Source: Patescibacteria group bacterium | GTDB lineage: Bacteria; Patescibacteriota; Microgenomatia; UBA8517 | NCBI GenBank assembly: GCA_036381415.1 | Contig: DASVCV010000003.1 | Location: 4,162-68,161, forward strand | DNA length: 64,000 bases | Reading direction: 5' to 3' | Shown here: positions 15,277-60,859 of the stretch, piece after piece | How the letters are laid out: each line of letters starts with the position of its first letter | Position numbering within the stretch: the stretch's first letter is position 1 | Position numbers and translations under genes: made by a program | The notes under the pieces: generated by a model | Seen by the model: the letters and a program-made list of their open reading frames with translations, nothing else | What the model was told of the DNA's origin: nothing | Databases searched by the model: none

Positions 15277-15780
15277 TTAATCAAGAGATTGCACTTCTGT
15301 AATGTAATAATCGTCGATACTGTCATTCTCCCCAAACATAAAGCTTCCAGTTAATAACTTTCCTGCAAAAACTTTAGGCATCCAGACTTCGTCATCAACC
15401 CACATCTCCTTAAACGGAATCTCATCCAATTTGAACCACTTGGGTCTCATTTCTTCTGTTTCTACAGGTTCGCCATGCCATTCGGTTGTAGTAAACACCC
15501 ACACTTTCATACCAAAATTATTGTGTGGAAAATGATACTTGAAAACAGCTACATTTTTAAGATTTGATGGAGTAATTCCGATTTCTTCTTGAGATTCTCT
15601 TATTGCAGTGCTTTCGATATCTTCATTGGGATTTGGTTTACCACCAACACCATTCCACTTACCAACGCCAAAGCCTCTTTTTTTCATTGCCAATAAGACT
15701 TCGTCGCCTTTCAGTAAAAGTAATACGGTTGCCTCTTTTAGAGGAATCGTTAATGTCTGCTCATATTCCCTAACTCCCAT
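15277..15780 (-). CDS. NUDIX hydrolase (paralog of 9794..10336)
   Basis: Nudix box GGKPNPNEDIESTAIRESQEEIGI. About half of its residues are identical to the other copy, including C-terminal LTGSFMFGENDSIDDYY. Confidence 0.8.
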   Translation of the reverse strand: MGVREYEQTLTIPLKEATVLLLLKGDEVLLAMKKRGFGVGKWNGVGGKPNPNEDIESTAIRESQEEIGITPSNLKNVAVFKYHFPHNNFGMKVWVFTTTEWHGEPVETEEMRPKWFKLDEIPFKEMWVDDEVWMPKVFAGKLLTGSFMFGENDSIDDYYITEVQSLD

Positions 15781-15949: not shown

Positions 15950-16714
15950 CTAAACAGTTGGCAAATGTAAATATTCTGTTCCAAATACTTGTTTAAAATC
16001 AAGATCGTTTAGTGCTAAGGGGAATAAATTAGGCTTGTTATAAAAATTGTGGAACGCTAGAGCTTTGCGCTTAAGAACCAGTTGAGTCTCGGTTAATTTA
16101 TAGCTATATTCAATTTCTTTGTTTAGCAAACCAAACTCCTTTGACCAATACTCTAGTTGAGGAATTAAATCTGGATTTAGTCTCTTTTTTGCGCCTGCTA
16201 ACCAATTAGACATCGCGTCTCTGTTAATAGTAATTTCTGATAGAAAGATTTGTTCTGGATATTTATTTTTGAGATGTCTTCCCACTAGATGAATTACTTT
16301 GTGGTCTTTGTTTCCATATCCCCCATTTTTGTCGTAGGACACAAGTGAAATTGGCAGTTTGATATTATTCTTTCCAAGCGCTTCAAGAAGTTCATTACCT
16401 ACATCTTCTATTTTTTGGTTCATAAGAGGAAAAACGTTTGTCCCCTGATACTTTGGCTCACTATATTTTAAGAAAATAACCGAACTTATTCCTAATATTG
16501 AACAAGCCTCGATTGTTTGTTGTTGACGTATAATTGTTTTTTCTTCTCCCTTAACTGAAGCTGCTGCCCCATATATGGCTACACATTTTCTTTTTTTTCT
16601 GGAAAGCTCATTTAATAAACCAGCAGATAAAAAAGATTCATCGTCGCAGTGAGCATGAAAGAATACGACAGGACGATTCTTTGGAAAAATTTCATCTATT
16701 TTTGTATTACTCAT
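15950..16714 (-). CDS. PIG-L/LmbE-family N-acetylglucosaminyl deacetylase
   Basis: VVFFHAHCDDESF (the HxDD zinc-binding motif of the LmbE/MshB/BshB family). The start overlaps the GT4 stop. Confidence 0.8.
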   Translation of the reverse strand: MSNTKIDEIFPKNRPVVFFHAHCDDESFLSAGLLNELSRKKRKCVAIYGAAASVKGEEKTIIRQQQTIEACSILGISSVIFLKYSEPKYQGTNVFPLMNQKIEDVGNELLEALGKNNIKLPISLVSYDKNGGYGNKDHKVIHLVGRHLKNKYPEQIFLSEITINRDAMSNWLAGAKKRLNPDLIPQLEYWSKEFGLLNKEIEYSYKLTETQLVLKRKALAFHNFYNKPNLFPLALNDLDFKQVFGTEYLHLPTV

Positions 16715-17891
16715 TTTTACTTAGATTTTCAAACAATTTAGTATCTAATCTAGATACTTCTTTTACAGATTTAAATGATTTAATAAAGTTAAGAGCTTGG
16801 GTAGAGAGGATATTCCTTTCTTTTAGAGATTCTACTGCTAGATTTGCGAATTTCTGGAAGTTTAATAGCTTAACTTTTTTAACCGCATTTGTAGCTGAAT
16901 AATTAAGTTTGGAAAAAGGAACACTCCATGTAATGACAGGTAATCCAAGGGCCAATGCTTCATTCACTACAGTTGGATAATTGTCATAATGAGAGGGATA
17001 CAGGAAAACACCACAGGAAGGCAGTATAGAATTTTTAGTTGAATCATCAGCCCACCCTTCATAATCTGCCTCAAAGTGTTTACTTTTATTTGAAACAAGC
17101 TTAGCTAAGGCTTGTTTACTAAAAGAATCGTCTGCCCTACCTAAAATAACTATTTTTACTTTTCTTCCAATCTTTATAGATATTCTTTTCAAAATATCCT
17201 CTAAATATTCCACACCTTTACCTTTTTCCATTCTAGCCATATAGGCAAAGTCATATTTTAAGTTGCTACTGATTTTGTAAGATTTATCCGCCTCAACTAC
17301 AGATGAAGCAGGCAAAACTAAAATTGGTAAATTTTTGAAATAAGTATTGAAGTAAAAAGCAACTGTTTTGTTGTTTGCTATTATTCTTACATTTTTAAAC
17401 ACTTCTTCAACTTCTTGATAGTGATTTAAAAGATAGTCTTTACGGTAAGTTGATATTCCTGAATTTGCATATTTTTCAACATCTTTTTTGAAATCTCCGC
17501 TAGGATTAGTAGGTGAAACCAAAAATGGCATAGCGTGCACTACTGTTGCGAAAGGTACTTTTCCCTTTAGGTTTTTGCCTAATTCTCTCATTAAGTCCCA
17601 TATTTCCATCTGCAGTATTACTGCGTCGGGCTTAAATTGGGTAATAAAGCTATTTATGTTTTCAACTACCTTACTCTGATCTTTAACTTCCCAACCATTA
17701 AATTCAACTGGATAATGAAAAAAGGTAATATTTTCGTAATTCTTCTTTGTGTTTTCATCATCAGGATTTTTGCCTAAACATACAATACTAATTTCATTTA
17801 ATTGAGAGAGGTATTTTAATTCTCTTGATAAACGAGCTAGGTGGCCTGCATTAGAAGATAAAGTTGAAAACGTAAGAAACATCAATCTCAT
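16707..17891 (-). CDS. glycosyltransferase family 4 (GT-B)
   Basis: 394 aa. C-terminal GT1/GT4 pattern (E...E motif region, DNYPTVVNEALALGLPVI). Confidence 0.75.
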   Translation of the reverse strand: MRLMFLTFSTLSSNAGHLARLSRELKYLSQLNEISIVCLGKNPDDENTKKNYENITFFHYPVEFNGWEVKDQSKVVENINSFITQFKPDAVILQMEIWDLMRELGKNLKGKVPFATVVHAMPFLVSPTNPSGDFKKDVEKYANSGISTYRKDYLLNHYQEVEEVFKNVRIIANNKTVAFYFNTYFKNLPILVLPASSVVEADKSYKISSNLKYDFAYMARMEKGKGVEYLEDILKRISIKIGRKVKIVILGRADDSFSKQALAKLVSNKSKHFEADYEGWADDSTKNSILPSCGVFLYPSHYDNYPTVVNEALALGLPVITWSVPFSKLNYSATNAVKKVKLLNFQKFANLAVESLKERNILSTQALNFIKSFKSVKEVSRLDTKLFENLSKNE

Positions 17892-18544
17892 AGCTGAGAC
17901 TTATTATTTTCATTAAAAATATAGATGGTTCCTACTTTTTCCTCCATTTTTCCTTCAGAATCCAAAATCATACCTGAATCTTCAGGTAGGGCTAGAACTT
18001 CAGATTTTGTCTTTTTAATTGTTTTATATACGTTTTTGTCGGCCTCTTCCTTGTAGTGACAAATTACAGACTTACCACCAAGCAGATTAAGTCCTTCGTA
18101 ATATGAATAGTTGCTATCATTTTCCTCTTCAACTGTTCTTATATCTTTGCCCAATATTATTGCTCCTGCACTTCCTCCATATACAATTCCACCATTTTTG
18201 ATAAATGTTTTGATTTTTTCATCCAATCCACTTTTTTTAATGTAATTTAGAAGTTTATAAGTGTTTCCACCACCCATATATATGGAATCATATAGCTTAA
18301 GATCTGGGATTTCGTCATCTTCCAAAAGCATTGTAAAATCTATATCTTTTTGGTTTGAGTGCTTTACAATAACTGTAGAAAACCAATCGTAGCTAGCTTC
18401 AAATCCAGTTTTGGTTCTGTTTAGTGCTATTGGAATATAGAGTATTTTTGAGTTGTTTTTAAGTAGAGAGAAATATTTTTTATCAATTCCAACACTAATA
18501 TCTATGTCTCCTCCACCTCCTAGGATAATTTTTCCCTTCTTCAT
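17888..18544 (-). CDS. peptidase S51 (dipeptidase E / cyanophycinase-like) family protein
   Basis: YMGGGNTYKLL...IVYGGSAGAIILG places the S51 catalytic Ser in GGSAG context. Overlaps neighbours on both sides. Confidence 0.6.
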   Translation of the reverse strand: MKKGKIILGGGGDIDISVGIDKKYFSLLKNNSKILYIPIALNRTKTGFEASYDWFSTVIVKHSNQKDIDFTMLLEDDEIPDLKLYDSIYMGGGNTYKLLNYIKKSGLDEKIKTFIKNGGIVYGGSAGAIILGKDIRTVEEENDSNYSYYEGLNLLGGKSVICHYKEEADKNVYKTIKKTKSEVLALPEDSGMILDSEGKMEEKVGTIYIFNENNKSQL

Positions 18545-19704
18545 GCTATTTTTTTAACTATCTCATCTATCTTATCTTTTGGCAACGAAAAACCAACTTG
18601 TTTTAAAAAGTCTTGAGTTGGCTGATTTATATCAACATAAATTTCGGTTGTTCCCTCTCTACCCAAGGTCTCTAAAAACAAACCATTATAATTCCTATCA
18701 TTTTCTAAAGATACAACCTTTAGCACCTCTTCTTTACTTACGGTCGGCTTATATCCCCATTTTTTCCAGAACTCGTAAGATGTATCTACTAATTCTGCTA
18801 CATTAGTATTTGTCCCTATGCTTCTTTGAACAAACCGTTTTGAAAGTTGTCTTAATCTATATCCGTGATCGTGAGAGGAAGGTTTTGTTCCTTCACCTGC
18901 TATTAAGACCATTGTTCTAATGGGGTCTATTATGGAAGCAATTTTATCTGCATCTGCTTGATCGTATAGTTCGTCAAATTCAGTAAAATAATGTTTAGTG
19001 GCGTTGATTGCCCAATTTAGCCTTTCTATTCCAAAACCTATATCAACAATTGATATTTTTTTGTCTTCTGTAACAGGATAATCATGAATATACACACACT
19101 CGCCTAATTCAATTCCGCCTGCATATATTGTAAATTGTGTCTTTGTGAACTTTCTACTACCCCATCTGTCGGGCACATTTTCTACTTGGAATCTTAAACT
19201 GCTTGCACTTACACCCAAACTTGTAATAAGTTTTATAAATTGATTAGACAGTTTTATAAAGTCATCGGGTTTTGCATCTACTGATTCTACTGAAAAATTG
19301 ATGAAAGATGATGAAGTTCCTTCTTTTATTTTATCCATAAACTGGCTCCTTATAACTGGCTGACTTACAACGAATGCTTCTCGTTTTAAATCACTACCTG
19401 TTCTTAGTACTGTTTCTATATGCTGAACTCCTGCTGAAGTAAAAAATGTCGTATCGCCTTTGGGCCTACAAACGGCATCAGGCTCTATTGACTTAACTCC
19501 ATCAAAATATTGGAATATATCTTCTGGTTTTTCCAATGGTTTTCTTTCGCTTGTTACTTGGGGTTTTTCATAATGAGTTGAGGGTGATAGCCTTAGAAAA
19601 TCTTGCCTTTCTTCATCTGCGACTAATCCTAAGTTTTGTGCGATAAAATCCTTGTTTAATTCAGTTTCTTGTGGGTATTTATTTTTAACCCTATCCATGT
19701 TCAT
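18541..19704 (-). CDS. stand-alone alanyl-tRNA-synthetase catalytic-core paralog (class II aaRS-like ligase)
   Basis: FFTSAGVQHIE matches AlaRS LLFTNAGMNQFK, VLRTGSDL matches CVRAGGKHNDL, and VDIGFGIERL matches VDTGMGLERI. It is only 387 aa, with no editing or C-Ala domains. Confidence 0.55.
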   Translation of the reverse strand: MNMDRVKNKYPQETELNKDFIAQNLGLVADEERQDFLRLSPSTHYEKPQVTSERKPLEKPEDIFQYFDGVKSIEPDAVCRPKGDTTFFTSAGVQHIETVLRTGSDLKREAFVVSQPVIRSQFMDKIKEGTSSSFINFSVESVDAKPDDFIKLSNQFIKLITSLGVSASSLRFQVENVPDRWGSRKFTKTQFTIYAGGIELGECVYIHDYPVTEDKKISIVDIGFGIERLNWAINATKHYFTEFDELYDQADADKIASIIDPIRTMVLIAGEGTKPSSHDHGYRLRQLSKRFVQRSIGTNTNVAELVDTSYEFWKKWGYKPTVSKEEVLKVVSLENDRNYNGLFLETLGREGTTEIYVDINQPTQDFLKQVGFSLPKDKIDEIVKKIA

Positions 19705-19707
19705 TAT

Positions 19708-20931
19708 TTAATAAAGTTGAATTTTTTCTTGTAACAGCAATTTTGTAATTTCAGGAATAGATTTAACTTCCTTTTCAACTAGTTTTTTAACGCCATCTTT
19801 GTCTTTGAAATCTTCTGGAAGTGTTATAAATATTGCCCAAGGATCAAGTAAGTCTCTACCACTTTGGCTAATTAAGGCAACTTCGTTAGGAACTTTAAAT
19901 TCTTCATATATTTTTTTACTTATTTCATTAGCAGTCACATAATAAACTTTTCCAATATGATAAACAGGGTTTTTACCACATGCTCCTTCCATGCTCATTG
20001 GTCTAGTTGGTGAAATAACTCCATTTATTCTATTTCCTCTACCAACCAATCCTTCATCTCCACTTTCAATGGAAGAACCTATTGCCGTAAGGTAGAGCTC
20101 CATTGTGTTGAAATTGTCTCTGGTGTTGAAGTTAAGTTCTAAATCTTTTATTCCTAAATCTTTGGAAATTTTAAATATTACTTTCCTTGCCTTTTCCATA
20201 TTAGTTTTATATTCACCAGCAGATTTAACATGGTCTGCTATTTGAGGGATGCACATGGTAATTCCAAACTGGTCATGGTTTCTGTAACCCATTATTTTTA
20301 TGTCTGAACCAATCCAGGGATTTTCCTTTTTAAATTCTTCAGAATTTAAGGTGTTTTCAATTTTTAGTACTAGCTGCTCTAAGATTGTATGTGGTGCATA
20401 GCCTACCCCAAGAGATGTGTCATTTGAAACTAATTTCTTGGTTTCAGGTAAATCTTGTAGTGTTCTAGGTTCAAACCAATGCTTTCTTGGAGCATTTGTA
20501 GATTCAAATTCTTCTGTTTTTCCTGGACTACTTTGGCTACTTAAATTGTAATGAAACTCTAAATCCTTGTCTGGATTTATCATTGGAAATCTAGATTTAA
20601 GAAACTCTTTTGCCCAAGAAATTAACATTTCTTTAACAGGTATTTCTTCATCCCCAAACTTGGTTGATGCACGACCATTTAGTAAAACTCTAATTGGCTT
20701 AATCAGATAACCTTTACCAAACGTTACAAAAGAAGCTCCACCTAGAAGTCCCACTTTGTCAAAATTGTGATGTAAAACTGCTCCAAATTTTTCAAGGGTA
20801 TAGTTAGAGTATTTGACAGATAAAACCTCTGCTAATGCATCTGATAGGGTGTCTGGATGTCCAATCCCCTTTCTTTCAACAAACTCATAATCTGGGCTGT
20901 CTTTAGGCTTTTTAGTAATATAGATATTCAT
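19708..20931 (-). CDS. archaeal-type S-adenosylmethionine synthetase
   Basis: MNIYITKK...[18 protein letters not shown] is the N-terminal signature of archaeal-type MAT. 407 aa. Confidence 0.85.
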
Positions 20932-21104: not shown

Positions 21105-21422
21105 ATGTATATTGAATTTGTTAACAGTAAAATTCGAAAGGTGTGTGAAAAGCGTTCAATTGCCATTAAAAAATTAGGTTTGAGAAATGCAGACTTGGTG
21201 GTTCAAAGAATAATGGAAATGGAAGCGGCAGCAAGTTTACAAGATTTAAGGATTTTACCAGGCCCAAGATGTCATCCTTTGAGCGGAGATAGAAAGGGAC
21301 AATATGCTGTTGACCTTGTTCATCCCAAAAGATTAGTTTTTTTGCCAGTAACTAAACTAAACGAAATTGCAGAAAGTTTGATTACAGAAATAATGGTTAT
21401 CGAAATAGTAGATTATCATTAA
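21105..21422 (+). CDS. higB: HigB-like (plasmid-maintenance killer, RelE superfamily) toxin
   Basis: 105 aa. The pattern ...NADLVVQRI...LQDLRILPGPRCHPLSGDRKGQYAVDL is typical of the HigB killer family. It lies immediately upstream of HigA. Confidence 0.7.
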   Translation: MYIEFVNSKIRKVCEKRSIAIKKLGLRNADLVVQRIMEMEAAASLQDLRILPGPRCHPLSGDRKGQYAVDLVHPKRLVFLPVTKLNEIAESLITEIMVIEIVDYH

Positions 21423-21424
21423 CT

Positions 21425-22510
21425 ATGATTAAGCAAAAAATAAATAATTACACACCAGATTTTATTGTTCACCCAGGTGTCACTTTGTCTGAAACGCTGG
21501 GTGCTATTGGTATGAGTCAAACCGAATTGTCCAAAAGAATTTCCCGACCAGAAACGGCAATTAGTGAAATTATAAACGGTTCCAAATCACTTACTCCCGA
21601 GACAGCAATCCAATTAGAAAGAGCTCTGGGCATCCCAGCTTCATTTTGGAATAATCTTGAGAAGAATTATCAGGAACTTAAAGCTAAATCTGAGTCTAAA
21701 AAAGCTTTACTTAAACAATCCGACCTAGCTGCAAATTATCCTTATGCTGAAATGGCAAAAAATGGCTGGGTGCAACAGACCAACAGTCTAGAAGAAAAAA
21801 TTGAAAATTTGTTGTCCTTCTTTGCAGTGGATAAATTATCTGTAATACCTGAAGTCATGCCTACTGCTTTTAGACAGCATAATGGGCGTTCTATATCCCA
21901 CTACTCTATACAAGCATGGCTGAGGAAGGGACTTATAGACAGTCAAATGGTAGATACAAAACCGTTTAATAAACAAAAATTAAACAATTTACTTGACGAG
22001 TTTAGAACGCTTTCAGTTGAAACCCCCAATATTATAGTGGACAAATTAACAAGATCCCTTGCAGAGTGCGGGATTGCTCTTGTATTCACAAAGGATTTAC
22101 CAAACACTTATGTCTGTGGAGCTTCTCGTTGGATAACACCTAACAAGGCAATCCTACAACTTTCATTAAGAGGACTTTATGCAGATATAATGTGGTTTAC
22201 TTTTTATCATGAATTAGGACACTTGTTGTTGCATAGCAAAAAGAAATATTTTGTAGATTTAAATCACACGACAAATAACACTGAGGAGGAAAAAGAAGCA
22301 GACAATTTTGCTTCGGAACACATTATCCCTGAACAAAAATTGTCTGAATTTATTTCAAAGAATGAAATTAGCGTCACATCAATTACAAATTTTGCTAACG
22401 AATTAGGTATCCATCCAGGAATTATTGTAGGTAGGCTCCAACACAAAAAGAAAATAGAATACAAGGATTTTAATCACCTAAGAGCTAAATATTATTTTGT
22501 AAAATCATAA
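21425..22510 (+). CDS. higA: HigA-type HTH antitoxin fused to an ImmA/IrrE-family metallopeptidase domain
   Basis: N-terminal HigA HTH (GVTLSETLGAIGMSQTELSKRISRPETAISEIINGSKSLTPETAIQLERALGIPASFW). C-terminal HEXXH (FYHELGHLLLH) with a downstream acidic residue, as in ImmA/IrrE. Confidence 0.7.
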   Translation: MIKQKINNYTPDFIVHPGVTLSETLGAIGMSQTELSKRISRPETAISEIINGSKSLTPETAIQLERALGIPASFWNNLEKNYQELKAKSESKKALLKQSDLAANYPYAEMAKNGWVQQTNSLEEKIENLLSFFAVDKLSVIPEVMPTAFRQHNGRSISHYSIQAWLRKGLIDSQMVDTKPFNKQKLNNLLDEFRTLSVETPNIIVDKLTRSLAECGIALVFTKDLPNTYVCGASRWITPNKAILQLSLRGLYADIMWFTFYHELGHLLLHSKKKYFVDLNHTTNNTEEEKEADNFASEHIIPEQKLSEFISKNEISVTSITNFANELGIHPGIIVGRLQHKKKIEYKDFNHLRAKYYFVKS

Positions 22511-26223: not shown

Positions 26224-27014
26224 AGACTAATTATTTCATTGTTGGTGATGCCATTGAAAAAATGCAAAGACTCCCGAACGAGTCTATTGATTTAGTGGCA
26301 ACTGATCCACCTTATAATCTAGGGAAGAATTACGGCAATAACATCGACTACAAGGAGTGGCATGATTACCAACTGTTTACAGAAAGATGGCTGTCTGAGG
26401 CTGTGAGAGTTTTGAAATCATCAGGTAGTATTTATGTGTTTATGGGGGTAAGGTTTATTTCTAAGCTATTTACTTTAATGGAAGAAAAAGGCTTATTATT
26501 CAATGGTTGGATCACCTGGCACTACACTCAAGGTATGGGTAGAACACTTGGATTTTCCCCACGACATGAAGATCTTTTGTATTTTACCAAATCATCTAAT
26601 TTTACTTTTAATTTAGATGATATAAGAGTTCCACAAAAATACTTCCGAGAAAGAAATAACATGAAGGGTGCAAACCCTGGTGACGTTTGGCTGTTTTCTC
26701 ATGTTCATTACTCAAATCCAGAAAGGCAACCTCACCCTACACAAAAACCCTTGGCTGTAATGGAAAGGATAATTAAAGCAAGTTCAAATAAAGGTGATCT
26801 CGTTTTAGATCCGTTTGTAGGAAGTGGAAGTACATGCGTTGCTGCAAATGCACTAGATCGAAAATGGATAGGAATTGATACTAATCCAGATTATATTAAA
26901 ATGTCTAAAAAAAGAATATCGGAAATTTATTCTCCTGACTCCTTTGACCCTCGTCAAAGCAGAACTCCCCGAGATCTTAAAAAAAATGTTAATCAGAAAG
27001 GTTTACTTTTTTGA
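26220..27014 (+). CDS. DNA methyltransferase, beta-class amino-MTase (N4-C or N6-A)
   Basis: Motif IV VATDPPYNL precedes motif I LDPFVGSGST. The ORF track started it at an upstream alternative codon (26142). Confidence 0.85.
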   Translation: MKTNYFIVGDAIEKMQRLPNESIDLVATDPPYNLGKNYGNNIDYKEWHDYQLFTERWLSEAVRVLKSSGSIYVFMGVRFISKLFTLMEEKGLLFNGWITWHYTQGMGRTLGFSPRHEDLLYFTKSSNFTFNLDDIRVPQKYFRERNNMKGANPGDVWLFSHVHYSNPERQPHPTQKPLAVMERIIKASSNKGDLVLDPFVGSGSTCVAANALDRKWIGIDTNPDYIKMSKKRISEIYSPDSFDPRQSRTPRDLKKNVNQKGLLF

Positions 27015-27016
27015 CA

Positions 27017-28480
27017 ATGAAAGCAATAATCCTAGCTAGAGTATCTACTGAAGAACAAAAAGAGGCTGGAAATTCTTTACCTGCTCAACAAGCTAGGCTA
27101 AGAGCCTACATAGATAGAAAGTCCGATTTTCAATTAGTAAAAGAGTTTATATTTGATGAGTCAGCATATCAAGATAAAGAAAGGAAAAAATTTCAGCAGG
27201 TTGTTGATTATATTAGCAACCAAAAAGAAACAATTGCAGTTTGTTGCGATAAAGTAGATAGATTAAGCAGAGATTTTTTACTTGGTTTGCCTGCCTTAGA
27301 AAAGCTTAGAAGAATTGGTAAGATTGAATTGCACTTTCCTTCTGATAACTTAGTTATTCATAAAGATTCTCCTGCAACTGATCTATTTCACTACAATATT
27401 GCTTTGAGTTTGGCTCAATATTTTTCAAACGCTATTAGCGATAACGTCAAAAGAGCAATTGAACAAAAGCTCCGCAATGGTGAGTGGCCAGGTAAAGCTC
27501 CTTATGGATATAAAAATATAAGTATAAGCGAAGATAAAAAGGATATTATAGTGGATGAATTTACTTCAAGAGTTGTAAAGAAAATGTATGAGTGGTATTC
27601 AACGGGTGCCTATTCCCTACTCATTATTAGAAAGAAACTTAAAGAAGATCATAACATAGATTTTTCAAAGGGTTATATTGATGCAATTCTTAAAAATCCT
27701 TTCTATTGTGGTTTAATGCGTTTCAAAGGCGACCTTTACCCTCATAAATATGAACCTTTAATTTCTAAAGAGCTGTTTGATAAGGTGCAACAAATAAAGG
27801 CTGGGTATAACAAGAAGCATCATAAGTTTGCAGGGCTTCCCTACGCATATAGGGGCTTAATTCGCTGTGCTGTGTGCGGTTGTATGATAACCCCTGAGAA
27901 GCATAAAGGTCATATTTACTATCACTGCACACAATACAAAGGTAAGCATAAGATGGAATGGCTTAGAGAAGAAGATATAACCGAACAGTTTGCACAGTTA
28001 TTTAAAAAGCTACAGATACCACAAGAAATATTGGAAGATATCACAAACTCGCTTAAAAGCGTTCATAAGGGAAAAATTGAATACAGAGAGGAAGAGTTTA
28101 AAGCATTAAATGCGGAAAAGAATAAATACGCGAAAAGAATTGAACACTCATACGAGGATAGACTTGATGGGCGTATTACTGTAAATGAATATGACAAATA
28201 TCACACTGAGTTTAGAAATAAGATAAACGAAATTGATAGTAAATTAGCAAACTTACAGAAAGCAGAAGATGACTATTATTTGAGCGCAAAATACCTTCTG
28301 GAATTGGCAAACAGAGCTTCTGATTTATTCAAAAGTTCTGAAATTGAGGAAAGACGCCAACTTTTGAAGCTTACACTTCAGAACCTTACCTTGGATGGTA
28401 AAAAAGTCCGATTCCAAGCTCAAAAACCCTTTGATACAATCTTAAATTTCGCAGATAGTCCTTCTTGGCTCCCCCGGTAG
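27017..28480 (+). CDS. large serine recombinase (resolvase/invertase N-domain plus recombinase and zinc-ribbon domains)
   Basis: KAIILARVSTEEQ (catalytic Ser), C-terminal CAVCGC...CTQYKG zinc ribbon and a coiled-coil tail. Its stop codon lies inside the tRNA-Asn 3' exon on the opposite strand. Confidence 0.85.
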   Translation: MKAIILARVSTEEQKEAGNSLPAQQARLRAYIDRKSDFQLVKEFIFDESAYQDKERKKFQQVVDYISNQKETIAVCCDKVDRLSRDFLLGLPALEKLRRIGKIELHFPSDNLVIHKDSPATDLFHYNIALSLAQYFSNAISDNVKRAIEQKLRNGEWPGKAPYGYKNISISEDKKDIIVDEFTSRVVKKMYEWYSTGAYSLLIIRKKLKEDHNIDFSKGYIDAILKNPFYCGLMRFKGDLYPHKYEPLISKELFDKVQQIKAGYNKKHHKFAGLPYAYRGLIRCAVCGCMITPEKHKGHIYYHCTQYKGKHKMEWLREEDITEQFAQLFKKLQIPQEILEDITNSLKSVHKGKIEYREEEFKALNAEKNKYAKRIEHSYEDRLDGRITVNEYDKYHTEFRNKINEIDSKLANLQKAEDDYYLSAKYLLELANRASDLFKSSEIEERRQLLKLTLQNLTLDGKKVRFQAQKPFDTILNFADSPSWLPR

Positions 28481-28727
28481 GATTCGAACCTACAACCTTA
28501 TTCTTACAGTACCCCTTCTGTTACCAAAAGGACTGGACTATCTCATCTCCCTTAATGGGAGTCGGGTATATAGTCTCTACACATTTACTCTATTTAAAAA
28601 TAGAGATTTAGCTCGGGATTATCCTTTTTACAGGATTTCCCCGAATTAGCCCGATTTTACATTCTGCATTACTACAGAACGCTGCCTAACTTGACAGGAA
28701 TCTGCTCTGCCGTTGAGCTACAGGGGA
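28469..28727 (-). tRNA. tRNA-Asn(GUU) gene interrupted by a group I intron
   Basis: The 5' exon 28694..28727 reads TCCCCTG-TA-GCTC-AACGGCA-GAGC-A-GATTC-CUGU and ends in U. The 3' exon 28469..28506 reads UAA-GAAUA-AGGUU-GUAGG-UUCGAAU-CCUAC-CGGGGGA-G and follows an intronic G. Spliced, the anticodon loop is CUGUUAA, the acceptor stem pairs with one G-U, and CCA is encoded at 28466..28468. Confidence 0.6.
28507..28693 (-). ncRNA. group I intron (Azoarcus tRNA-Ile intron-like, ~187 nt) in the anticodon loop of tRNA-Asn
   Basis: P, Q, R and S elements are present. AAUUCGGGGAAAUCC (P) pairs with AAUCCCGAGC (Q). GUGUAGAGACUAUAUACC (R) and GAGAUAGUCCAG (S) form the P7 GACUA/UAGUC pairing and closely resemble the Azoarcus GUGUAGAGACUAGACGG. 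There is a U-G pair at the 5' splice site (exon CUGU with intron GGCAG) and a terminal omega-G. Confidence 0.6.
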
Positions 28728-33713: not shown

Positions 33714-33715
33714 GC

Positions 33716-33798
33716 GGAAGGGACAGGATTCGAACCTGCGAGGGCTTGCGCCCACACGCTCTCCAAGCGTGCGCCTTGAACCGCTCGGCCACCCTTCC
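33716..33798 (-). tRNA. tRNA-Ser(GGA)
   Basis: Reverse complement GGAAGGG-UG-GCC-GAGCGGUUCAA-GGC..., anticodon loop UUGGAGA, long variable arm, T-loop GGUUCGAAUCC, acceptor CCCUUCC-G. Confidence 0.75.
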
Positions 33799-34239
33799 CT
33801 ATTTTTTCTTTTTCTTTTTTTCTGCCTCTAATTTTTTAAGAAGGTCACGAGCTCCCCTTAACATGGCTTGGTCTCTTTTGGTGGTAAGCTTTTTAATAGC
33901 TTTTCCATATTCAAACCAATCATATGCAGCAAAACCTAGTACTTCTTTTCCTTCTTTATTAATCATTAAGTAATAAAGATACCTTTGAGGAACGGTGCGC
34001 CCTCCAAGCATTGCAGCTCCTCCACCACGGCCTACTTCTTCAAGGACTTTTGCTCTCATTCCACCTTGCTCACCCATGGCTCTAATTACTGCTCTAACTG
34101 AAGACTCTCCCCTTCTTGCAGTGGTTTTGGGAAGTTCCCAATCAGAATCTTCTTTTTGTTTTACAAGAAACCAAGTTGTTTTACCATTTGCCTTGCGGTA
34201 AACAACTGCTGCTCCTACTAATAATATTTTTTCTTTCAT
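33799..34239 (-). CDS. hypothetical protein, weakly NUDIX-like, Lys-rich C-tail
   Basis: 146 aa. WELPKTTARRGESSVRAVIRAMGEQGG resembles a degenerate Nudix box. The C-terminus is KKKKKK. Confidence 0.35.
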   Translation of the reverse strand: MKEKILLVGAAVVYRKANGKTTWFLVKQKEDSDWELPKTTARRGESSVRAVIRAMGEQGGMRAKVLEEVGRGGGAAMLGGRTVPQRYLYYLMINKEGKEVLGFAAYDWFEYGKAIKKLTTKRDQAMLRGARDLLKKLEAEKKKKKK

Positions 34240-34252
34240 TTTTTCAATTATG

Positions 34253-34324
34253 TGTCCCTGGTCAGAATTGAACTGACATCAAAGGTTCCGGAAACCTTTA
34301 CTTTATCCATTAAGCTACAGGGAC
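34253..34324 (-). tRNA. tRNA-Arg(CCG)
   Basis: Reverse complement GUCCCUG-UA-GCUU-AAUGGAUA-AAGU-A-AAGGU-UUCCGGA-ACCUU-UGAU-GUCAG-UUCAAUU-CUGAC-CAGGGAC-A. Confidence 0.75.
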
Positions 34325-34352
34325 TTATTATACTCTACTTTGTAGCCTAATG

Positions 34353-34435
34353 CGGAGAGGACAGGACTCGAACCTGCAAGGGCTTACGCCCGCCGGTTTT
34401 CGAAACCGGTACCTTACCATTCGGTACACCTCTCC
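34353..34435 (-). tRNA. tRNA-Ser(CGA)
   Basis: Reverse complement GGAGAGG..., anticodon stem CCGGU/ACCGG with loop UUCGAAA, long variable arm GCGGGCGUAAGCCCUUGC, T-loop GGUUCGAGUCC, acceptor CCUCUCC-G. Confidence 0.75.
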
Positions 34436-34449
34436 TTAATTTTAATTTG

Positions 34450-34521
34450 TGCACCCGCCCAGAGTCGAACTGGGATCAAAAGCTCCGCAAGCTTGTACTC
34501 TATCCATTGAGCTACGGGTGC
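34450..34521 (-). tRNA. tRNA with anticodon GCG (Arg, unusual G34)
   Basis: Reverse complement GCACCCG-UA-GCUC-AAUGGAUA-GAGU-A-CAAGC-UUGCGGA-GCUUU-UGAU-CCCAG-UUCGACU-CUGGG-CGGGUGC-A. There is a C27-U43 mismatch in the anticodon stem. Confidence 0.6.
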
Positions 34522-34524
34522 AAG

Positions 34525-35076
34525 TTATTTATTACCCGGCATCCTTTTTGAAACCCAGATGGTTGCTTTATCTATATATGAAGGTGGAATTTCTTCATGT
34601 ACTAAGTACTCTGAAATTTCCTTTTTAATTTCATCCTTCACACTAGAATTAACAACCACTTCTAGACGGCCAGGCAGAGTTACTGTTTCTACAACCAAAA
34701 GTTCACTGTCAAACCTTTTAGTAAACCAAAATCTTCCCATTACATCCCAAGATGTGGTCTTACCTGCCACATTTATTCCTTTATTAGTAATTTTGTACTG
34801 GATGTTTTCAGGCTCTACAGTACTCATTACATAGAAAAGAAATACAAGAGAAATTATTAGAATTACAGGTAAAAAGCCTTCTATTAAAAAAAGAACAAAT
34901 CCGGCAACAGCTGCCATTGCTATCACTGTTACAAAAAACTCTTTGTTTCTTCTTTTAAAAGGCCTTGCTGGCGCGGTCCAAGTTACCAAGTCTTTTTCAG
35001 GCTCAGATTTCATCACTTCTGGCTTTGTATTTTGGTTTTCTGGTAATGTGCTACTTTCTTTTTCAATGGCAGGCAT
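34525..35076 (-). CDS. membrane protein with bacterial PH (bPH_2/YdbS-like) domain
   Basis: Two TM helices followed by a PH-like domain (KITNKGINVAGKTTSWDVMGRFWFTKRFDSELLVV). Confidence 0.45.
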   Translation of the reverse strand: MPAIEKESSTLPENQNTKPEVMKSEPEKDLVTWTAPARPFKRRNKEFFVTVIAMAAVAGFVLFLIEGFLPVILIISLVFLFYVMSTVEPENIQYKITNKGINVAGKTTSWDVMGRFWFTKRFDSELLVVETVTLPGRLEVVVNSSVKDEIKKEISEYLVHEEIPPSYIDKATIWVSKRMPGNK

Positions 35077-35144
35077 ATTAACCCATATTATACGCTAGTT
35101 TAGGGTACGTTCCAAGCTTACAATCTGATATAATGTGCTTGTTT

Positions 35145-35230
35145 GGAGGGTATCCCGAACGGCTCAGGGAATGGTTTGCTAAACCATAACGTTTAATTGC
35201 GTTAGGTGGGTTCGACTCCCGCACCCTCCG
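35145..35230 (+). tRNA. tRNA-Ser(GCU)
   Basis: GGAGGGU-AU-CCC-GAACGGCUCA-GGG-AA-UGGUU-UGCUAAA-ACCAU with long variable arm AACGUUUAAUUGCGUUAG, then GUGGG-UUCGACU-CCCGC-ACCCUCC-G. This parse is a 5-bp stem with a UGCUAAA loop (the working notes used AUGGU/UUGCUAA/ACCAU); under either parse the anticodon is GCU. Confidence 0.75.
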
Positions 35231-35262
35231 CACTAAGCCAAATTTGCTATAATCTACTATAG

Positions 35263-35353
35263 GGTGAGGTGTCCGAGAGGCCGATGGAGTTAGTCTTGAA
35301 AACTAATGTAGCGAATTTCGTTACCGTGGGTTCGAATCCCACCCTCACCGCCA
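35263..35353 (+). tRNA. tRNA-Ser(UGA), CCA encoded
   Basis: GGUGAGG-UG-UCC-GAGAGGCCGAU-GGA-G-UUAGU-CUUGAAA-ACUAA with long variable arm, then GUGGG-UUCGAAU-CCCAC-CCUCACC-G-CCA. Confidence 0.75.
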
Positions 35354-35355
35354 AC

Positions 35356-35967
35356 TTACGAGGCCATAGTTAAACCTATTGTTTCTTTTGCTCCATTTTC
35401 TTTTAATACTTTTTCTACTTCTTTAATTGTTGAACCAGTTGTAGCTACATCATCAAATATAACGTAGAAAAAATCAGGCTCAATTTTTTCTTTCCAGGCG
35501 TGATTTACCGCAAATTTACCGCGTAAATTCCGCAGCCTTTCTTCCTTTGCCAGTTCAACTTGAGGCTGACTGGCTTCAGTTTTTGCTATGAGGTCTGGGT
35601 TGAATTTCCAACCAAAATCTTTAGCTATCTTTTTTCCCATCATTTCAGCCTGATTAAAACCTCTCCAGTTTTGTCTTTGTTTGTGGAGTGGGACTGGAAC
35701 TAGAATTAGGTTTTTTGGAAATGAGAAGTTTTTCCTTTTAAGTTCTAGAATGGTTAGTTTTGCTAATTCTTCCCCTACTTCAAAGGCAAACTTGTATTTT
35801 AAGGCTAGAATGGCCTGTTTAATGACTCCTTCATAATTCCAAATGGAGATTATATTTTCTTGGTTTTGAGAATACCTTACTTTAGATAGACAGCTGCCAC
35901 AGATATACTTCCCTTCTTTTTTACAGGTTAAGCATCTTTTGGGAAATACTATATCTAGGACAGACAC
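35356..35967 (-). CDS. ComF-family protein (double zinc ribbon plus phosphoribosyltransferase domain)
   Basis: N-terminal CLTCKKEGKYICGSCLSKV zinc ribbon. C-terminal PRTase motif VIFDDVATTGSTI. Confidence 0.7.
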   Translation of the reverse strand: MSVLDIVFPKRCLTCKKEGKYICGSCLSKVRYSQNQENIISIWNYEGVIKQAILALKYKFAFEVGEELAKLTILELKRKNFSFPKNLILVPVPLHKQRQNWRGFNQAEMMGKKIAKDFGWKFNPDLIAKTEASQPQVELAKEERLRNLRGKFAVNHAWKEKIEPDFFYVIFDDVATTGSTIKEVEKVLKENGAKETIGLTMAS

Positions 35968-35970
35968 CTC

Positions 35971-36447
35971 ATGTACAATATACCTAATATGAAAACTAAC
36001 AGCAAAGCTAAGCCAGTAAGACTATTTAACAAGAGGGCTAAGTTTAACTATGAGCTTGGGAAGAAATATGAGGCTGGAATAGTACTTTCCGGAGGGGAGG
36101 CTAAATCAGTGCGTACTGGGCACTGTGATCTGTCCCGCTCATACGTTAAGATCATGAATAATGAGGCTTATTTAATTAATGCCAATATTCCTGTAGCTGG
36201 GGCTTTAAACTATGACTCAACAAGAACCCGCAAGCTCCTTTTACATAGGTCAGAAATATCAGATATTGAGACTAATCTGAAGCAGAAAAAATTGACTATT
36301 GTGCCTATCAGTGTGTATACTAAGGGACGCTTAATTAAGGCTGAAATAGCCTTGGGTAAGCCCAAAAAGACGTTTGAGAAAAAAGCCTCTATAAAGCAAA
36401 AAGATATCAAAAGGGATATTGAGCGGGAGGCAAGAGTTAAAGAGTAG
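35971..36447 (+). CDS. smpB: SsrA-binding protein
   Basis: NKRAKFNYELGKKYEAGIVLSGGEAKSV... is the SmpB signature. The tmRNA gene follows directly. Confidence 0.9.
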   Translation: MYNIPNMKTNSKAKPVRLFNKRAKFNYELGKKYEAGIVLSGGEAKSVRTGHCDLSRSYVKIMNNEAYLINANIPVAGALNYDSTRTRKLLLHRSEISDIETNLKQKKLTIVPISVYTKGRLIKAEIALGKPKKTFEKKASIKQKDIKRDIEREARVKE

Positions 36448-36452
36448 TTCAT

Positions 36453-36815
36453 GGGGACGATCGGTTTCGACGAGAAGCACTTTAAAAAAACTGCAAGCCA
36501 AGTTTGATTCACACTTGTAAAAAGGGGTCAAAAAATAACAGCTAAATCTAACGATTCAGCTTCAGTTAATCAAAACTTTGTTTTTGCTTAACTGACATCC
36601 TGAGATTTGATTCTCGACCGAATTGAATGGGTGTAAGAAAGATCGAGATATATATTAGTTTTCTGGCTTAGAAACTAATAATGAAAAAATTAAGCCTTAC
36701 TCTAAATTATCCTGTTAGCTGGTAAGATTTAGAGGAAATAAATAATAACTAAACAAGCTTGTAGAGGTTTTTCGAAGCACTTTTACGGACGAGGGTTCAA
36801 TTCCCTCCGTCTCCA
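36453..36815 (+). ncRNA. ssrA: tmRNA (ssrA)
   Basis: 5' GGGGACGAUCGGUUUCGACG and 3' GGACGAGGGUUCAAUUCCCUCCGUCUCCA form a tRNA-like domain. The internal reading frame after AAAAAAUAACA reads GCU AAA UCU AAC GAU UCA GCU UCA GUU AAU CAA AAC UUU GUU UUU GCU UAA, giving tag AKSNDSASVNQNFVFA. Confidence 0.8.
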
Positions 36816-36839
36816 CTAGATTTAAGAAATATTAATTAA

Positions 36840-48200: not shown

Positions 48201-48781
48201 GATACACTTGCACCCCAGCTGAACTTTTAATTGGAGTTTTGTCACAGGAAACCAGAGGAAGAACAGTTACTTCATTTAATCCCCTAACCCAAGAACCTAT
48301 TACTGGAGATCCTAATCAAAAGGTTGTAAGAACTGAGAGGTGTTTAAATGGAGATTTGAATGATCCAAATGGGTGTGGTCCCTATTCCTGGCATCCTTTT
48401 GTGACATATACAAACATGGCTGGCCAATGGCAAAAACAAGCTGCCGACTGCATTAACCACTTTGGTGTGTCATCCCCTCTTGACCAAAGAATTATTGCAC
48501 AGGCAATGTGCTACACTTCTGCTCATTTCTGGGGGTCAATTAGACTGAAGGATAGTTCTTTGCCTGATTGCACAGGAGAAAATCAAAAACCTTATACGCT
48601 TGACCAAGTTGATCCGGCTGGAGTGAGGCTTGCAACACTACAATTTTGCGGAGAAGCTGAAAATGGAGTTTTTACTCCAAGGTGTCAATCATATGCTGAT
48701 ACCTACAATACAATGATTGAGGGATACAAAGCTTCAGTTGGAATAGTAAGAGATCAGATGAAGGCATGTTTGACTCCATAA
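45254..48781 (+). CDS. large secreted Cys-rich protein (1175 aa), possible T4SS-associated surface/adhesin or cell-wall-active protein
   Basis: Signal peptide and many paired Cys (CSTAGATCCKD..., CVDNCKGDQTCAAACTHTNGC). The C-terminal region has ELLIGVLSQETRG, weakly reminiscent of lytic-transglycosylase catalytic-Glu context. Confidence 0.45.
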   Translation: MLKKSFKLFFILTVLFSFLRIVNSKSSFVYAQAACSTAGATCCKDTSNKYFCNNGLNPTSQTALCTCSGSTPSTQTPTQNSSTPVTQSHANGDKIGPELADPAAGANVVDRNGFKGTVAVINSIGGSVQNTVPSKSSNPVALRLLMDSGTTIDSMILYANLLNGSGPSQFPNGAIIILGNELNNLKGEWKDTNFTLRDAGARYAFMFNSFADNVTLDRGKFKVAPAPPDMYNGDFDPVEWLNGFLYGDEKHRYSYGVDCDRIDTLIANVFQVQPAAKVGGQWDQTYIFLQNYIGKKCPGKTVTHFEGWGADPHASVSDQVNFLNTQPLPVNSAATLIVDNCDGSFGGNGIKPWLYYIPKAPFVYKADGTPLDPQTCSGSSNLATTKNPYTPKDVPCDSRIGEYSDEYHSLRPYPASPCKKEVSETALMCGNDLIVKKTFSDLAPSGDCTSPGADGSFFCNYKYSGLTDNVTINLKNAELPILGNTELVPNSTDRNGAKRAYITYGQRVNEYVSWYLNGAIDRAEENFIKIPSDIDTLLNYSGPLRKLFPWSVQINQGMKTVQQVFDTRHDQTVGCYSNGQPVSCATPEALKDTQEVRASFWKNASPPLESAFSDFREYWKAYMTWRGQFCTPSLLGFFLCSPDLTAGPNWLASFFPFIPQSSTEDRTGQVITDNNIVVNGKQQLEHTVQLKDGQGNGGTVENVSFTPVSDNHNLYFAHTEEVATLGQLLQSTFATKSDPINDWETRLSRDVAIHDPDAVGGMQKYQTYGCNTQDVRINPGDNLYGDLPKDGNQITGNLNYDATFSCKFERKTDQACVDNCKGDQTCAAACTHTNGCSKDIYVSLAIYTKTPKAQEIWDRLVDGEMSVFKKIFPKAGPNSPVESIKDIPAASKVVYTSTTDEAKAGMTGRGGAEAQLFFPHIGSLEEYFLKGIQQALRPKDVGETAIAGKPGAMCSPTNPTNKSTFRDTEISDGVIGLALQVSRYTCTPAELLIGVLSQETRGRTVTSFNPLTQEPITGDPNQKVVRTERCLNGDLNDPNGCGPYSWHPFVTYTNMAGQWQKQAADCINHFGVSSPLDQRIIAQAMCYTSAHFWGSIRLKDSSLPDCTGENQKPYTLDQVDPAGVRLATLQFCGEAENGVFTPRCQSYADTYNTMIEGYKASVGIVRDQMKACLTP

Positions 48782-57215: not shown

Positions 57216-57231
57216 GGAGTAATTTTAAAAT

Positions 57232-60833: not shown

Positions 60834-60859
60834 ACAGAGGTAAAGCAAAGTTGTAAAAT

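Follow-up and report, generated by a model that had tools for sequence, protein, structure and literature searches.

A recurrent gene cassette pairing an archaeal-type SAM synthetase with a truncated AlaRS paralog in Patescibacteria and other uncultured lineages

To our knowledge, only a few paralogs of aminoacyl-tRNA synthetases (aaRS) act in small-molecule synthesis (MshC, AcmF, SbzA, the amino acid:carrier-protein ligases and PoxA), and each of them revealed new chemistry. For alanyl-tRNA synthetase (AlaRS), a 2022 review of aaRS paralogs lists only amino acid:carrier-protein ligases, and AcmF of the ascamycin pathway is the only experimentally characterised AlaRS-core paralog that we found in a literature search. 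AcmF, from Streptomyces sp. 80H647, is a truncated AlaRS-like protein that has the aminoacylation and tRNA-recognition domains but does not charge tRNA; it moves Ala, Gly or Ser from aminoacyl-tRNA to adenosine 5'-O-sulfamate, modelled in the adenylate pocket (PMC12945691). The aminoacyl-tRNA is supplied by AcmD, the aaRS of the cluster, and the hydrolase AcmE reverses the AcmF step (ACS Catal 2024, reviewed in PMC12945691). Here we describe a five-gene operon that encodes another truncated AlaRS-like protein and occupies positions 15950-20931, on the minus strand, of a 64,000-nucleotide stretch from a Patescibacteria group bacterium (contig DASVCV010000003.1, positions 4,162 to 68,161); this whole stretch is referred to below as the window. 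The AlaRS-like protein is paired with an archaeal-type S-adenosylmethionine (SAM) synthetase (MAT), and since this pairing recurs in about 100 loci from several bacterial and archaeal phyla, the operon most likely has no part in protein synthesis and instead makes a nucleoside or sugar compound that carries an amino acid.

Compared by description with AcmF and its partners, the cassette likewise has a truncated AlaRS-like protein, an enzyme predicted to make a 5'-substituted adenosine (MAT), a hydrolase of peptidase family S51 and, often, an adjacent seryl-tRNA synthetase (SerRS). On the other hand, its adenosyl partner would be SAM or a SAM derivative and not a sulfamate, its hydrolase is an S51 and not an alpha/beta protein, cyclitol and amino-sugar genes are attached to it, and its hosts belong to the candidate phyla radiation (CPR), DPANN and other uncultured lineages. 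With the mycothiol (Ino1, MshA, MshA2, MshB, MshC, MshD) and bacillithiol (BshA, BshB, BshC) pathways the window operon shares, at the level of protein families, a GT4-like glycosyltransferase (GT), a PIG-L deacetylase and a putative ligase derived from an aaRS, and sister loci add inositol-1-phosphate synthase (Ino1), phosphatases and a GNAT, as in mycothiol synthesis. However, the cassette paralog is a class II, AlaRS-derived protein whereas that of mycothiol derives from cysteinyl-tRNA synthetase (CysRS), MAT and S51 have no counterpart there, GT4 and PIG-L are dispensable in most cassette loci, and all matches to these pathways are sub-equivalog. Full-text literature searches on AlaRS-like proteins, SAM/MAT, Patescibacteria, AcmF and related themes found no description of the cassette. 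Small-molecule biosynthesis driven by aaRS paralogs is thus already known, but its pairing with a MAT is undescribed.

The operon and its conserved core proteins

All five open reading frames (ORFs) proposed by an initial annotation of the sequence were found in place on the minus strand, and its family assignments were upheld by Pfam or structural comparison. The first gene (19708-20931) encodes the 407-aa archaeal-type MAT (PF01941 AdoMet_Synthase, 6e-109), followed by the 387-aa AlaRS-like protein (18541-19704; PF01411, AlphaFold2 model and Foldseek), a 218-aa S51-family serine hydrolase (17888-18544; Peptidase_S51, 1.3e-22) and an accessory module composed of a 394-aa GT-B, GT4-like glycosyltransferase (16707-17891; Glycos_transf_1 PF00534, 3.9e-13; PF13692, 1.3e-12) and a 254-aa PIG-L/LmbE-family de-N-acetylase (15950-16714; PF02585, 6.3e-11). 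The same annotation described every junction as an overlap. Overlaps of 4, 4 and 8 nt are indeed present at the last three junctions, but the MAT and AlaRS-like genes (19704/19708) are separated by a 3-nt spacer (TAA ata ATG). The S51 gene is translationally coupled to the AlaRS-like gene through an ATGA overlap.

The closest database protein (100% identity) is a hypothetical protein of a Patescibacteria metagenome-assembled genome (MAG), which identifies the window as CPR DNA; within its 64 kb there is no full-length alaS. The AlaRS-like family is represented by 67 relatives in a word-indexed search; all of them are unnamed, come from metagenomes and measure about 340-420 aa. An exhaustive hidden Markov model search of 1.84 billion representatives gave 243 clusters at 50% identity with E<=1e-30, a number that rises to 434 with E<=1e-10. 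Scanning one genome per species (185,579 species) with a sequence pattern revealed 23 loci, labelled Patescibacteria, Saccharibacteria, Microgenomates, Chloroflexota, Omnitrophota, gut Alphaproteobacteria, Clostridia/Bacillota, Gammaproteobacteria and an archaeon; a family member is also present in a Nanoarchaeia (DPANN) MAG. Cultured producers, including Streptomyces, are absent from the matches of the family searches. Two identical loci carry different labels, L016 being assigned to Patescibacteria and L017 to Omnitrophota, so that either one of them was wrongly binned or the cassette was transferred very recently.

Gene neighbourhoods were compared by tblastn and ORF clustering in 103 loci with a family member (79 non-redundant at 90% nucleotide identity), with mechanically called ORFs and presence or absence judged within 8-10 kb of flank. 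Neighbours were counted within 7 kb in the 34 non-redundant loci that have at least 3.5 kb on both sides of the AlaRS-like gene. A MAT gene lies nearby in 33 of these 34 loci and an S51 gene in 29, and the three genes form the conserved core, so that the initial view of MAT and S51 as optional tailoring enzymes is not supported. Other neighbours are less frequent, namely SerRS (9/34), a GT4-type GT (8/34), PIG-L (7/34), Amidohydro_2 (5/34) and Ino1 (5/34).

The family divides into three deep subfamilies that share 22-35% identity, and the MAT pairing is kept in each. In subfamily 1, which includes the window, the order is MAT, AlaRS-like and S51 on one strand. Subfamily 2, probably largely CPR/DPANN, carries an N-terminal Zn ribbon and has AlaRS-like followed by S51 with a convergent MAT; a supposed second AlaRS paralog of this subfamily proved to be a clustering artefact, these proteins being SerRS. 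In the GC-rich subfamily 3, AlaRS-like is followed by MAT and Amidohydro_2. As for the complete operon, whose conservation in related genomes had been named as a check of the initial proposal, the five genes recur in the same order in L001/L011, L007 and L022-L024, with a PHP gene inserted in L018-L020, whereas L014 is missing S51 and has a GlyRS gene and another GT-like gene inserted. The record titles of five-gene-type loci name Patescibacteria, Saccharibacteria, Uhrbacteria and Alphaproteobacteria. Since the same genes recur in the same order in other genomes, the five-gene arrangement is not a product of chance. There is also a variant without an adjacent MAT, often with SerRS (L083:5427-7984; L035, L046, L086, L087, L093), which is composed of a protein termed K5 (299-537 aa, no known domain), a radical SAM enzyme of about 310 aa, S51 and AlaRS-like.

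The 387-aa protein scores 25.5 bits with PF01411, under the gathering score of 30.3, and does not reach the thresholds of the alaS models TIGR00344 (32.6 vs 457 bits) and TIGR03683 (39.5 vs 745). Its AlphaFold2 model (58 homologues, mean pLDDT 91) was compared with the Protein Data Bank (PDB) by Foldseek, and the top 27 matches are all AlaRS catalytic/tRNA-recognition fragments, archaeal ones first, the best being A. fulgidus AlaRS 3wqy (E=2e-15, TMq 0.65); the family profile matches E. coli AlaRS 3hxu at 1e-12. The protein comprises the aminoacylation core and, of the tRNA-recognition domain, only the initial helical part. Ending at residue 387, it has neither an editing nor a C-Ala domain, and its alignment stops near E. 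coli position ~365-420; family members are 320-420 aa. Several members are natural fusions, in which the AlaRS-like domain is joined to S51 (P0201), to a C6-type GT carrying the GT-B-type pattern 'CDYDN..YTFPNF' (P0144 and P0155), to a class I SAM methyltransferase (P0173) or to a further domain (P0183, whose relative P0206 shows a marginal GT2 match, E=0.03).

Residues were mapped by aligning the family with E. coli (Ec) AlaS of the MG1655 record, whose gene-derived numbering equals literature numbering +1; Ec positions are given here in the literature numbering. In the N-terminal half the mapping rests on MAFFT and motif inspection and not on structural superposition, the Trp170 equivalent being uncertain, and hhalign of the family against E. 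coli AlaRS covered the C-terminal half only. The residues of the adenylate site are retained: R119, equivalent to Ec R69 of motif 2, and R228, the motif-3 Arg, are invariant in the family, as is F134, while D221, equivalent to the alpha-amino binder Ec D235, is 95% conserved. E199, which likewise belongs to the adenylate site, V204 and G223 are further conserved matches to Ec E209, V214 and G237. The alanine-pocket residues Ec Asn212 and its neighbouring Trp are, on the contrary, not kept. The Trp that precedes N212 is replaced by G201 (95%), and the N212 position is acidic, being occupied by Glu (E202) in 84% of the close family and, across the wider family, by Asp. The cassette differs here from AcmF, which has Glu at the D235 position, where the cassette keeps Asp, and Gln at the N212 site, where the cassette has Glu or Asp.

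In AlaRS, the Asn of the 'PSN' motif reads the G3:U70 pair (PMC12945691). At its position (Ec N303) the window protein has Ser, but roughly half of the close family and all members of subfamily 2 (20/20) have Asn. The same role is said to have been ascribed to the PSN Asn by Naganuma in 2014. Neither Cys nor His occurs among the invariant or >=90%-conserved columns of the family. The isoelectric point of the family was considered as a proxy for tRNA binding and is uninformative, E. coli AlaRS being equally acidic. By its predicted fold the protein is a paralog of the AlaRS catalytic core, as first annotated, and the rarity and patchy distribution, the loss of domains and the changes in the pocket speak against its being a housekeeping or split AlaRS.

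The window MAT scores 364.9 bits with PF01941 (threshold 27) and remains under the NCBIfam equivalog cut-off (370.6 vs 481 bits). Its core is ~50% matched with the MATs of M. jannaschii and P. furiosus, and the MAT motifs ERKGxGHPD, HHNxD, NDTS and GDxGxVGRGNR are intact in comparison with 7p82 and 6s81. In the cassette MATs of all subfamilies, the loop before NDTS is 7-19 residues longer and differently conserved. It reads 'SSPGKT...RKxWFEPR..DL' in most of them and stands in for the canonical 'GQGSxDxVxVF', a segment which we take to be the active-site gating loop. The identities of MAT and AlaRS-like to their window counterparts fall together (83/59%, ~70/40%, 40/27%). Since the altered loop is shared across subfamilies, the cassette MATs are read, at the level of sequence, as a dedicated clade travelling with the AlaRS paralog.

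The S51 protein reaches 80.9 bits (threshold 23.9) but not the equivalog cut-offs of PepE and cyanophycinase. In an alignment of 18 sequences, the homologues linked to the cassette all keep the Ser of the nucleophile elbow GGSAGA, the His of CHY and the Glu of PE, and a second, non-cassette S51 copy in L010 deviates from these triad motifs. Since the three motifs are kept, the cassette S51 proteins are classed by their sequences as serine hydrolases and not as Cys glutaminases. A glutaminase acting as ammonia donor for AsnA-like amidation had been considered because S51 also matches GATase_3, and was dismissed, the nucleophile being Ser and never Cys in the alignment. In subfamily 3, an Amidohydro_2 protein replaces S51; L027 and L029 carry both.

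Sugar modules and neighbouring synthetases

The GT4 orthologues sit after S51, nearly always together with PIG-L. The recurrence of this pair with the AlaRS paralog, anticipated initially, is thus real, but the view that the pair defines the system is not supported, as it is detected in only 8 (GT4) and 7 (PIG-L) of 34 loci. Neither gene was detected beside the trio in most subfamily-2 loci or in the one DPANN locus examined; many subfamily-2 loci and the DPANN locus have MAT, AlaRS-like and S51 only, with or without SerRS. Since many loci carry the trio alone, the sugar module is accessory. It is one of several interchangeable modules for (amino)cyclitols or amino sugars. A Pfam census of 133 neighbouring proteins counted nine GT1/GT4, seven Ino1, six PIG-L, four methyltransferases, three HAD Cof/S6PP phosphatases, three radical SAM enzymes, and two each of carbamoyltransferase, GT8 and PHP.

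The Ino1 gene was found in seven loci. It directly precedes MAT in L010 and in loci from Saccharibacteria, Uhrbacteria and Paceibacterota, whereas in L033, an archaeal locus, it adjoins MAT but is encoded on the other strand. A PIG-L::GNAT fusion (L024:10770-12149), in which the GNAT domain is C-terminal, parallels MshD. In L007 (10952-12244) PIG-L has a C-terminal extension of ~150 residues with no family match; a CYTH domain guessed there by eye found no Pfam or NCBIfam support. A DegT sugar aminotransferase occurs together with radical SAM/SPASM enzymes in L037 and L078, the former locus having a GFO_IDH oxidoreductase as well. Subfamily 3 has either a dehydroquinate (DHQ)-synthase-like cyclase fused to a class III aminotransferase or an IMPase with an aminotransferase, GFO_IDH and GT4, in surroundings that include an APH-family kinase, GNATs and a nonribosomal peptide synthetase (NRPS) module. 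Many PIG-L-less loci with sugar genes have an aminotransferase (DegT, Aminotran_3) instead, which we infer to supply the amine; loci with only the C6-type GT have none. The accessory set consists of parts of (amino)cyclitol-aminosugar pathways.

As regards the window enzymes themselves, no MshA or BshA model is among the NCBIfam matches of the GT at E<0.01, and its PDB sequence matches are generic GTs (E~0.008). The PIG-L protein passes PF02585 (43.3 vs 28.2), and the HxDDE and DH metal motifs are seen in its translation; its best characterised relatives are MshB, Mca and BshB1, all under their cut-offs (MshB 21.5 vs 224; 42.5 for the L007 orthologue). Neither a CysRS-like nor a BshC-like gene was found in the window or the related loci, nor a conserved Zn/thiolate motif. 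From the mycothiol-like scheme of the initial annotation there remains the recurrence of GT4 and PIG-L with an AlaRS paralog; thiol chemistry is not indicated, and GT4/PIG-L as the core is not supported. A cyclitol, GlcNAc (N-acetylglucosamine) transfer by a GT4 enzyme and deacetylation by PIG-L are common to mycothiol, glycosylphosphatidylinositol (GPI) anchors and the paromamine of 2-deoxystreptamine aminoglycosides, and the cassette genes fit paromamine and GPI logic as well as mycothiol. Paromamine is made by a BtrC-type cyclase, an aminotransferase, the GT4 enzyme BtrM/NeoD and the LmbE-type deacetylase BtrD/NeoL. Its counterparts here are the cyclase::class III aminotransferase of subfamily 3 and one locus with IMPase, GFO_IDH, aminotransferase and APH-family kinase, whereas the window locus has no cyclase. 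We know of no described aminoglycoside cluster with an AlaRS paralog or a dedicated archaeal-type MAT.

SerRS stands beside the pair in 32 of the 103 related loci. Thirty-one are of canonical bacterial type (TIGR00414 serS equivalog, 472 and 407 bits vs cut-off 302), and one, in L037, is methanogen-type (PF18490 and PF00587) and lies directly upstream of MAT; the two SerRS types are unrelated. The SerRS-linked loci span at least five gene arrangements, including Clostridia/Bacillota L031 and L009, L035, L046, L078 and L093. Where a genome has 700-1000 genes, chance alone would place a single-copy gene within ~14 genes of the cassette at an estimated ~2%, against the 9/34 observed. A general enrichment of aaRS genes (GlyRS, MetRS, HisRS, GluRS-like) was rejected, these being at about chance in 0.7-1 Mb genomes by a rough estimate; SerRS alone stands out. 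Alanine, the amino acid predicted at first, is therefore not indicated, SerRS being the recurrent neighbour. AlaRS accepts serine and glycine, and complexes of E. coli AlaRS with SerSA are present in the PDB. Since SerRS is the adjacent synthetase and AlaRS accepts serine, serine is our best guess for the amino acid. SerRS could deliver Ser-tRNA or mark the target of the product, or it may be a housekeeping copy. No riboswitch or T-box that might name a ligand was found at the cassette in the window or in nine related loci. A 457-aa GluRS-like paralog follows MAT-AlaRS-like-S51-methyltransferase in two loci (L005:10652-12022, L016:10455-11828). With 153 bits it stays below the gltX cut-off (290), and neither HIGH nor KMSKS is seen in it by eye; this cassette type would thus include two aaRS paralogs.

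Possible chemistry of the cassette and competing explanations

The explanation that we favour, at somewhat short of an even chance and by analogy with ascamycin, is a small-molecule cassette in which the MAT product is held in the former Ala-AMP pocket of the AlaRS paralog and coupled to a small amino acid, probably serine, with S51 reversing or editing this step and GT4/PIG-L providing a glucosamine (GlcN)-cyclitol moiety. It is proposed because the cassette core maps onto AcmD, AcmF and AcmE part by part. The MAT, whose motifs are intact, would make a 5'-substituted adenosine from ATP, by default SAM from methionine. The AlaRS paralog would no longer charge tRNA(Ala); by comparison with the AcmF model, in which dealanylascamycin is bound, the adenosyl compound would sit in its pocket and be joined to the small amino acid, or the amino acid would be joined to an amine held beside it. 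Serine would come from Ser-tRNA(Ser) made by the often adjacent SerRS, or be activated in situ. S51, or Amidohydro_2 in another subfamily, would cleave the aminoacyl bond for immunity, maturation or editing, as do AcmE or MccF. In the clade of the window, GT4 and PIG-L would make a hexosamine glycoside freed of its N-acetyl group, attached to inositol phosphate in the case of sister loci, and this glycoside would become part of the product, as in the first steps of paromamine, mycothiol and GPI synthesis. The likely product would be an aminoacylated adenosyl/aminocyclitol-glycoside metabolite, possibly a seryl-adenylate mimic, and such a mimic would also explain the adjacent SerRS as a resistance copy, as with albomycin. 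This explanation is supported by the conservation of the core across bins labelled CPR, DPANN, Chloroflexota, Alphaproteobacteria and Clostridia, by the loop common to the cassette MATs, by the retained adenylate-site residues and D221 along with the changes at the Ec N212 and Trp positions, by the adjacency of two SerRS types, by the fusions of the AlaRS-like domain to S51, GTs and a methyltransferase, and by accessory genes typical of aminocyclitol/aminoglycoside clusters, including an inositol-dehydrogenase-like GFO_IDH, carbamoyltransferase, methyltransferases and APH.

Microcin C with MccF, and albomycin with a second SerRS, are Trojan-horse aaRS inhibitors accompanied by an immunity peptidase or a resistant aaRS. 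The proposed cassette would resemble them in an aminoacyl-nucleoside product, a serine peptidase that cuts the aminoacyl group from the nucleotide, and an extra or adjacent aaRS whose specificity is the one targeted; L010 has an S66 (MccF-family) peptidase nearby; it shares no biosynthetic enzymes with them, however.

Several points weigh against the favoured explanation. Gene content, conservation and fold are observed, but every chemical step is inferred from them, and the binding of SAM by the AlaRS paralog is a prediction; with R119 and D221 retained, ordinary ATP-dependent adenylation of an amino acid is possible. The role of S51 is assigned only by analogy, the known S51 enzymes cutting Asp-X or beta-Asp-Arg bonds, and the link between the GlcN-glycoside and the adenosyl/aminoacyl part is likewise hypothetical, being drawn from other pathways. 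SerRS adjoins in only 9/34 well-flanked loci, and within the 64-kb window there is no gene for SerRS (serS), inositol-1-phosphate synthase or phosphatases. In DPANN, the archaeal-type MAT and SerRS might be single housekeeping copies whose synteny is kept for regulation, and MAG labels may include mis-binned contigs.

The initial annotation had proposed an MshC-like ATP-dependent ligase, which we consider unlikely, though not to be neglected. Here GT4 would make a GlcNAc-glycoside, PIG-L would deacetylate it, and the AlaRS paralog would adenylate a small amino acid and form an amide on the GlcN amine, SAM and S51 acting in tailoring only. The adenylation residues R119, D221 and R228 are those expected of such a ligase, GT4 and PIG-L follow the trio in 7-8/34 loci, the fusions P0144 and P0155 join the AlaRS-like domain to a GT, and Ino1, phosphatases and PIG-L::GNAT in sister loci complete the MshA/A2/B/D parts list; an amine-forming enzyme (PIG-L, DegT, Aminotran_3) also stands beside sugar/cyclitol genes in many, though not all, loci. 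Such a ligase leaves unexplained, however, why MAT is present in 33/34 loci and GT4 and PIG-L in so few, why the MATs form a specialised clade and why SerRS is adjacent, and in most subfamily-2 loci and the DPANN locus no sugar or amine-forming gene was detected within the 8-10 kb flank. The near-universal MAT pairing (33/34) is accounted for if SAM itself is the activated 'amino acid', or an aminocarboxypropyl (acp) donor, linked to a cyclitol/amino-sugar amine or hydroxyl, which seems rather improbable. Methylthioadenosine (MTA) would be lost later to leave a homoseryl, 1-aminocyclopropane-1-carboxylate (ACC), azetidine or acp-type side chain, with S51/Amidohydro_2 processing an intermediate. 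There is a precedent in the colibactin NRPS domain ClbH-A2, which adenylates SAM as an amino-acid substrate. Judging from the residues, E/D202 with Gly201 might enlarge the pocket and suit a cationic group, but no aaRS has a smaller pocket than AlaRS, and an enlargement of the pocket is hypothetical. The most distant member examined, L009, lies near genes of the PNP_UDP_1 and IF-2B families, which include MTA phosphorylase and methylthioribose-1-phosphate (MTR-1-P) isomerase; these possible MTA-salvage genes occur in one locus only, and the SerRS adjacency would again be unexplained.

A distinctly improbable alternative takes its model from adenomycin, in which C5' of adenosine is linked to C3 of an L-chiro-inositol that carries L-gulosamine (PMC6540904). 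In this case, the adenosyl group would be passed to a cyclitol hydroxyl (5'-ether) from SAM or, by the variant MAT, directly from ATP, GT4/PIG-L would add the hexosamine, and the AlaRS paralog with SerRS would N-serylate it. Adenomycin also contains L-serine and sulfate. The gene classes match its moieties (MAT; Ino1 or cyclase; GT with PIG-L/DegT; SerRS with AlaRS-like), and the altered MAT loop could reflect a different nucleophile. Yet no family member among the matches comes from Streptomyces or any cultured organism, the minimal loci are without cyclitol and sugar genes, and we know of no O-adenosylating MAT. A role in translation, as a split/minimal AlaRS or as a factor for tRNA-dependent conversion or editing with MAT and SerRS as ordinary neighbours, is highly improbable. 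The retained first helical part of the tRNA-recognition domain would suit it, as would an Asn at the Ec N303 position, shared by every member of the SerRS-linked subfamily (20/20) and the consensus residue overall, and SerRS and MAT are housekeeping families. But the editing and C-Ala domains are missing and the scores are 32.6-39.5 against alaS cut-offs of 457-745; 23 of 185,579 species-representative genomes is far too rare for a CPR AlaRS, the protein is found in MAGs labelled Alphaproteobacteria, Gammaproteobacteria and Clostridia, where a full-length alaS is expected, and it is fused to GTs, S51 and a methyltransferase and embedded among cyclitol and sugar genes. Chance synteny is negligible as an explanation, about 100 loci sharing the arrangement.

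CPR and DPANN organisms, in which most of the AlaRS-derived family is found, are regarded as nearly devoid of secondary metabolism and as living attached to hosts. If the favoured explanation is true, an aminoacyl-nucleoside/aminocyclitol pathway, possibly yielding an aaRS inhibitor, would bear on symbiont-host interaction, would offer a new SAM-using or aminoacyl-tRNA-using enzyme scaffold and might reveal how adenomycin and other cyclitol nucleosides are made, the biosynthetic logic of which is missing. New SAM or adenosyl chemistry is a realistic prospect. A bolder idea, doubtful for now, is that the MAT with its remodelled loop and an AlaRS-derived enzyme using the MAT product in the former adenylate pocket form a hitherto unrecognised pair that drives the synthesis of new adenosyl/aminoacyl metabolites, such as seryl-adenylate mimics of a seryl-SAM type or adenosyl-cyclitol-aminosugars resembling adenomycin, in ultra-small symbionts (CPR, DPANN) and in certain bacteria from gut and groundwater; it is even conceivable that the MAT paralog adenosylates a nucleophile other than methionine.

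Surroundings of the operon in the window

A NUDIX hydrolase gene (15277-15780, minus strand; PF00293, 1.5e-17) lies 170 nt downstream of the cassette. It is probably not part of the system, since it stands beside the cassette in only 1/34 loci, that of the window. On the other side, a divergent two-gene module (21105-22510, plus strand) encodes a 105-aa ORF and a 361-aa protein with a helix-turn-helix (HTH) and an ImmA/IrrE-type peptidase. The latter matches the PADLOC model PD-Lambda-2_B (5.8e-44), the sole defence-model match near the cassette besides that of PIG-L. An anti-phage defence role of the cassette itself was rejected, as MAT, AlaRS-like, S51 and GT4 have no PADLOC match and that of PIG-L is weak and likely spurious (E=0.004). 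Together with a serine recombinase (27011-28480), the HTH/ImmA module suggests a mobile or defence-island setting. In the gap after this large recombinase gene, Rfam identifies a group I catalytic intron (28514-28703, minus strand; 89.4 bits, E=1.6e-21), and ARAGORN finds no tRNA at that site.

An RNA gene cluster (33714-36816) contains tRNA-Ser GGA, CGA, GCT and TGA, all four isoacceptors being found, as well as two tRNA-Arg and the transfer-messenger RNA (tmRNA). Its position ~13 kb from a cassette whose relatives often link to SerRS is probably a coincidence. Large ORFs without any Pfam match occupy 37433-39361, 45254-48781 (1175 aa), 48834-50525 and 50679-52538. An AdoCbl-II (cobalamin) riboswitch aptamer (54447-54518, minus strand; 41.2 bits vs gathering 36.5) lies upstream of ORF 53460-54428 on the same strand. 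Finally, conjugation or type IV secretion-like genes extend over 55455-61873 (plus strand), including a TraG P-loop/VirB4-like ATPase (57232-59073) and an M23 peptidase protein (59070-60833).

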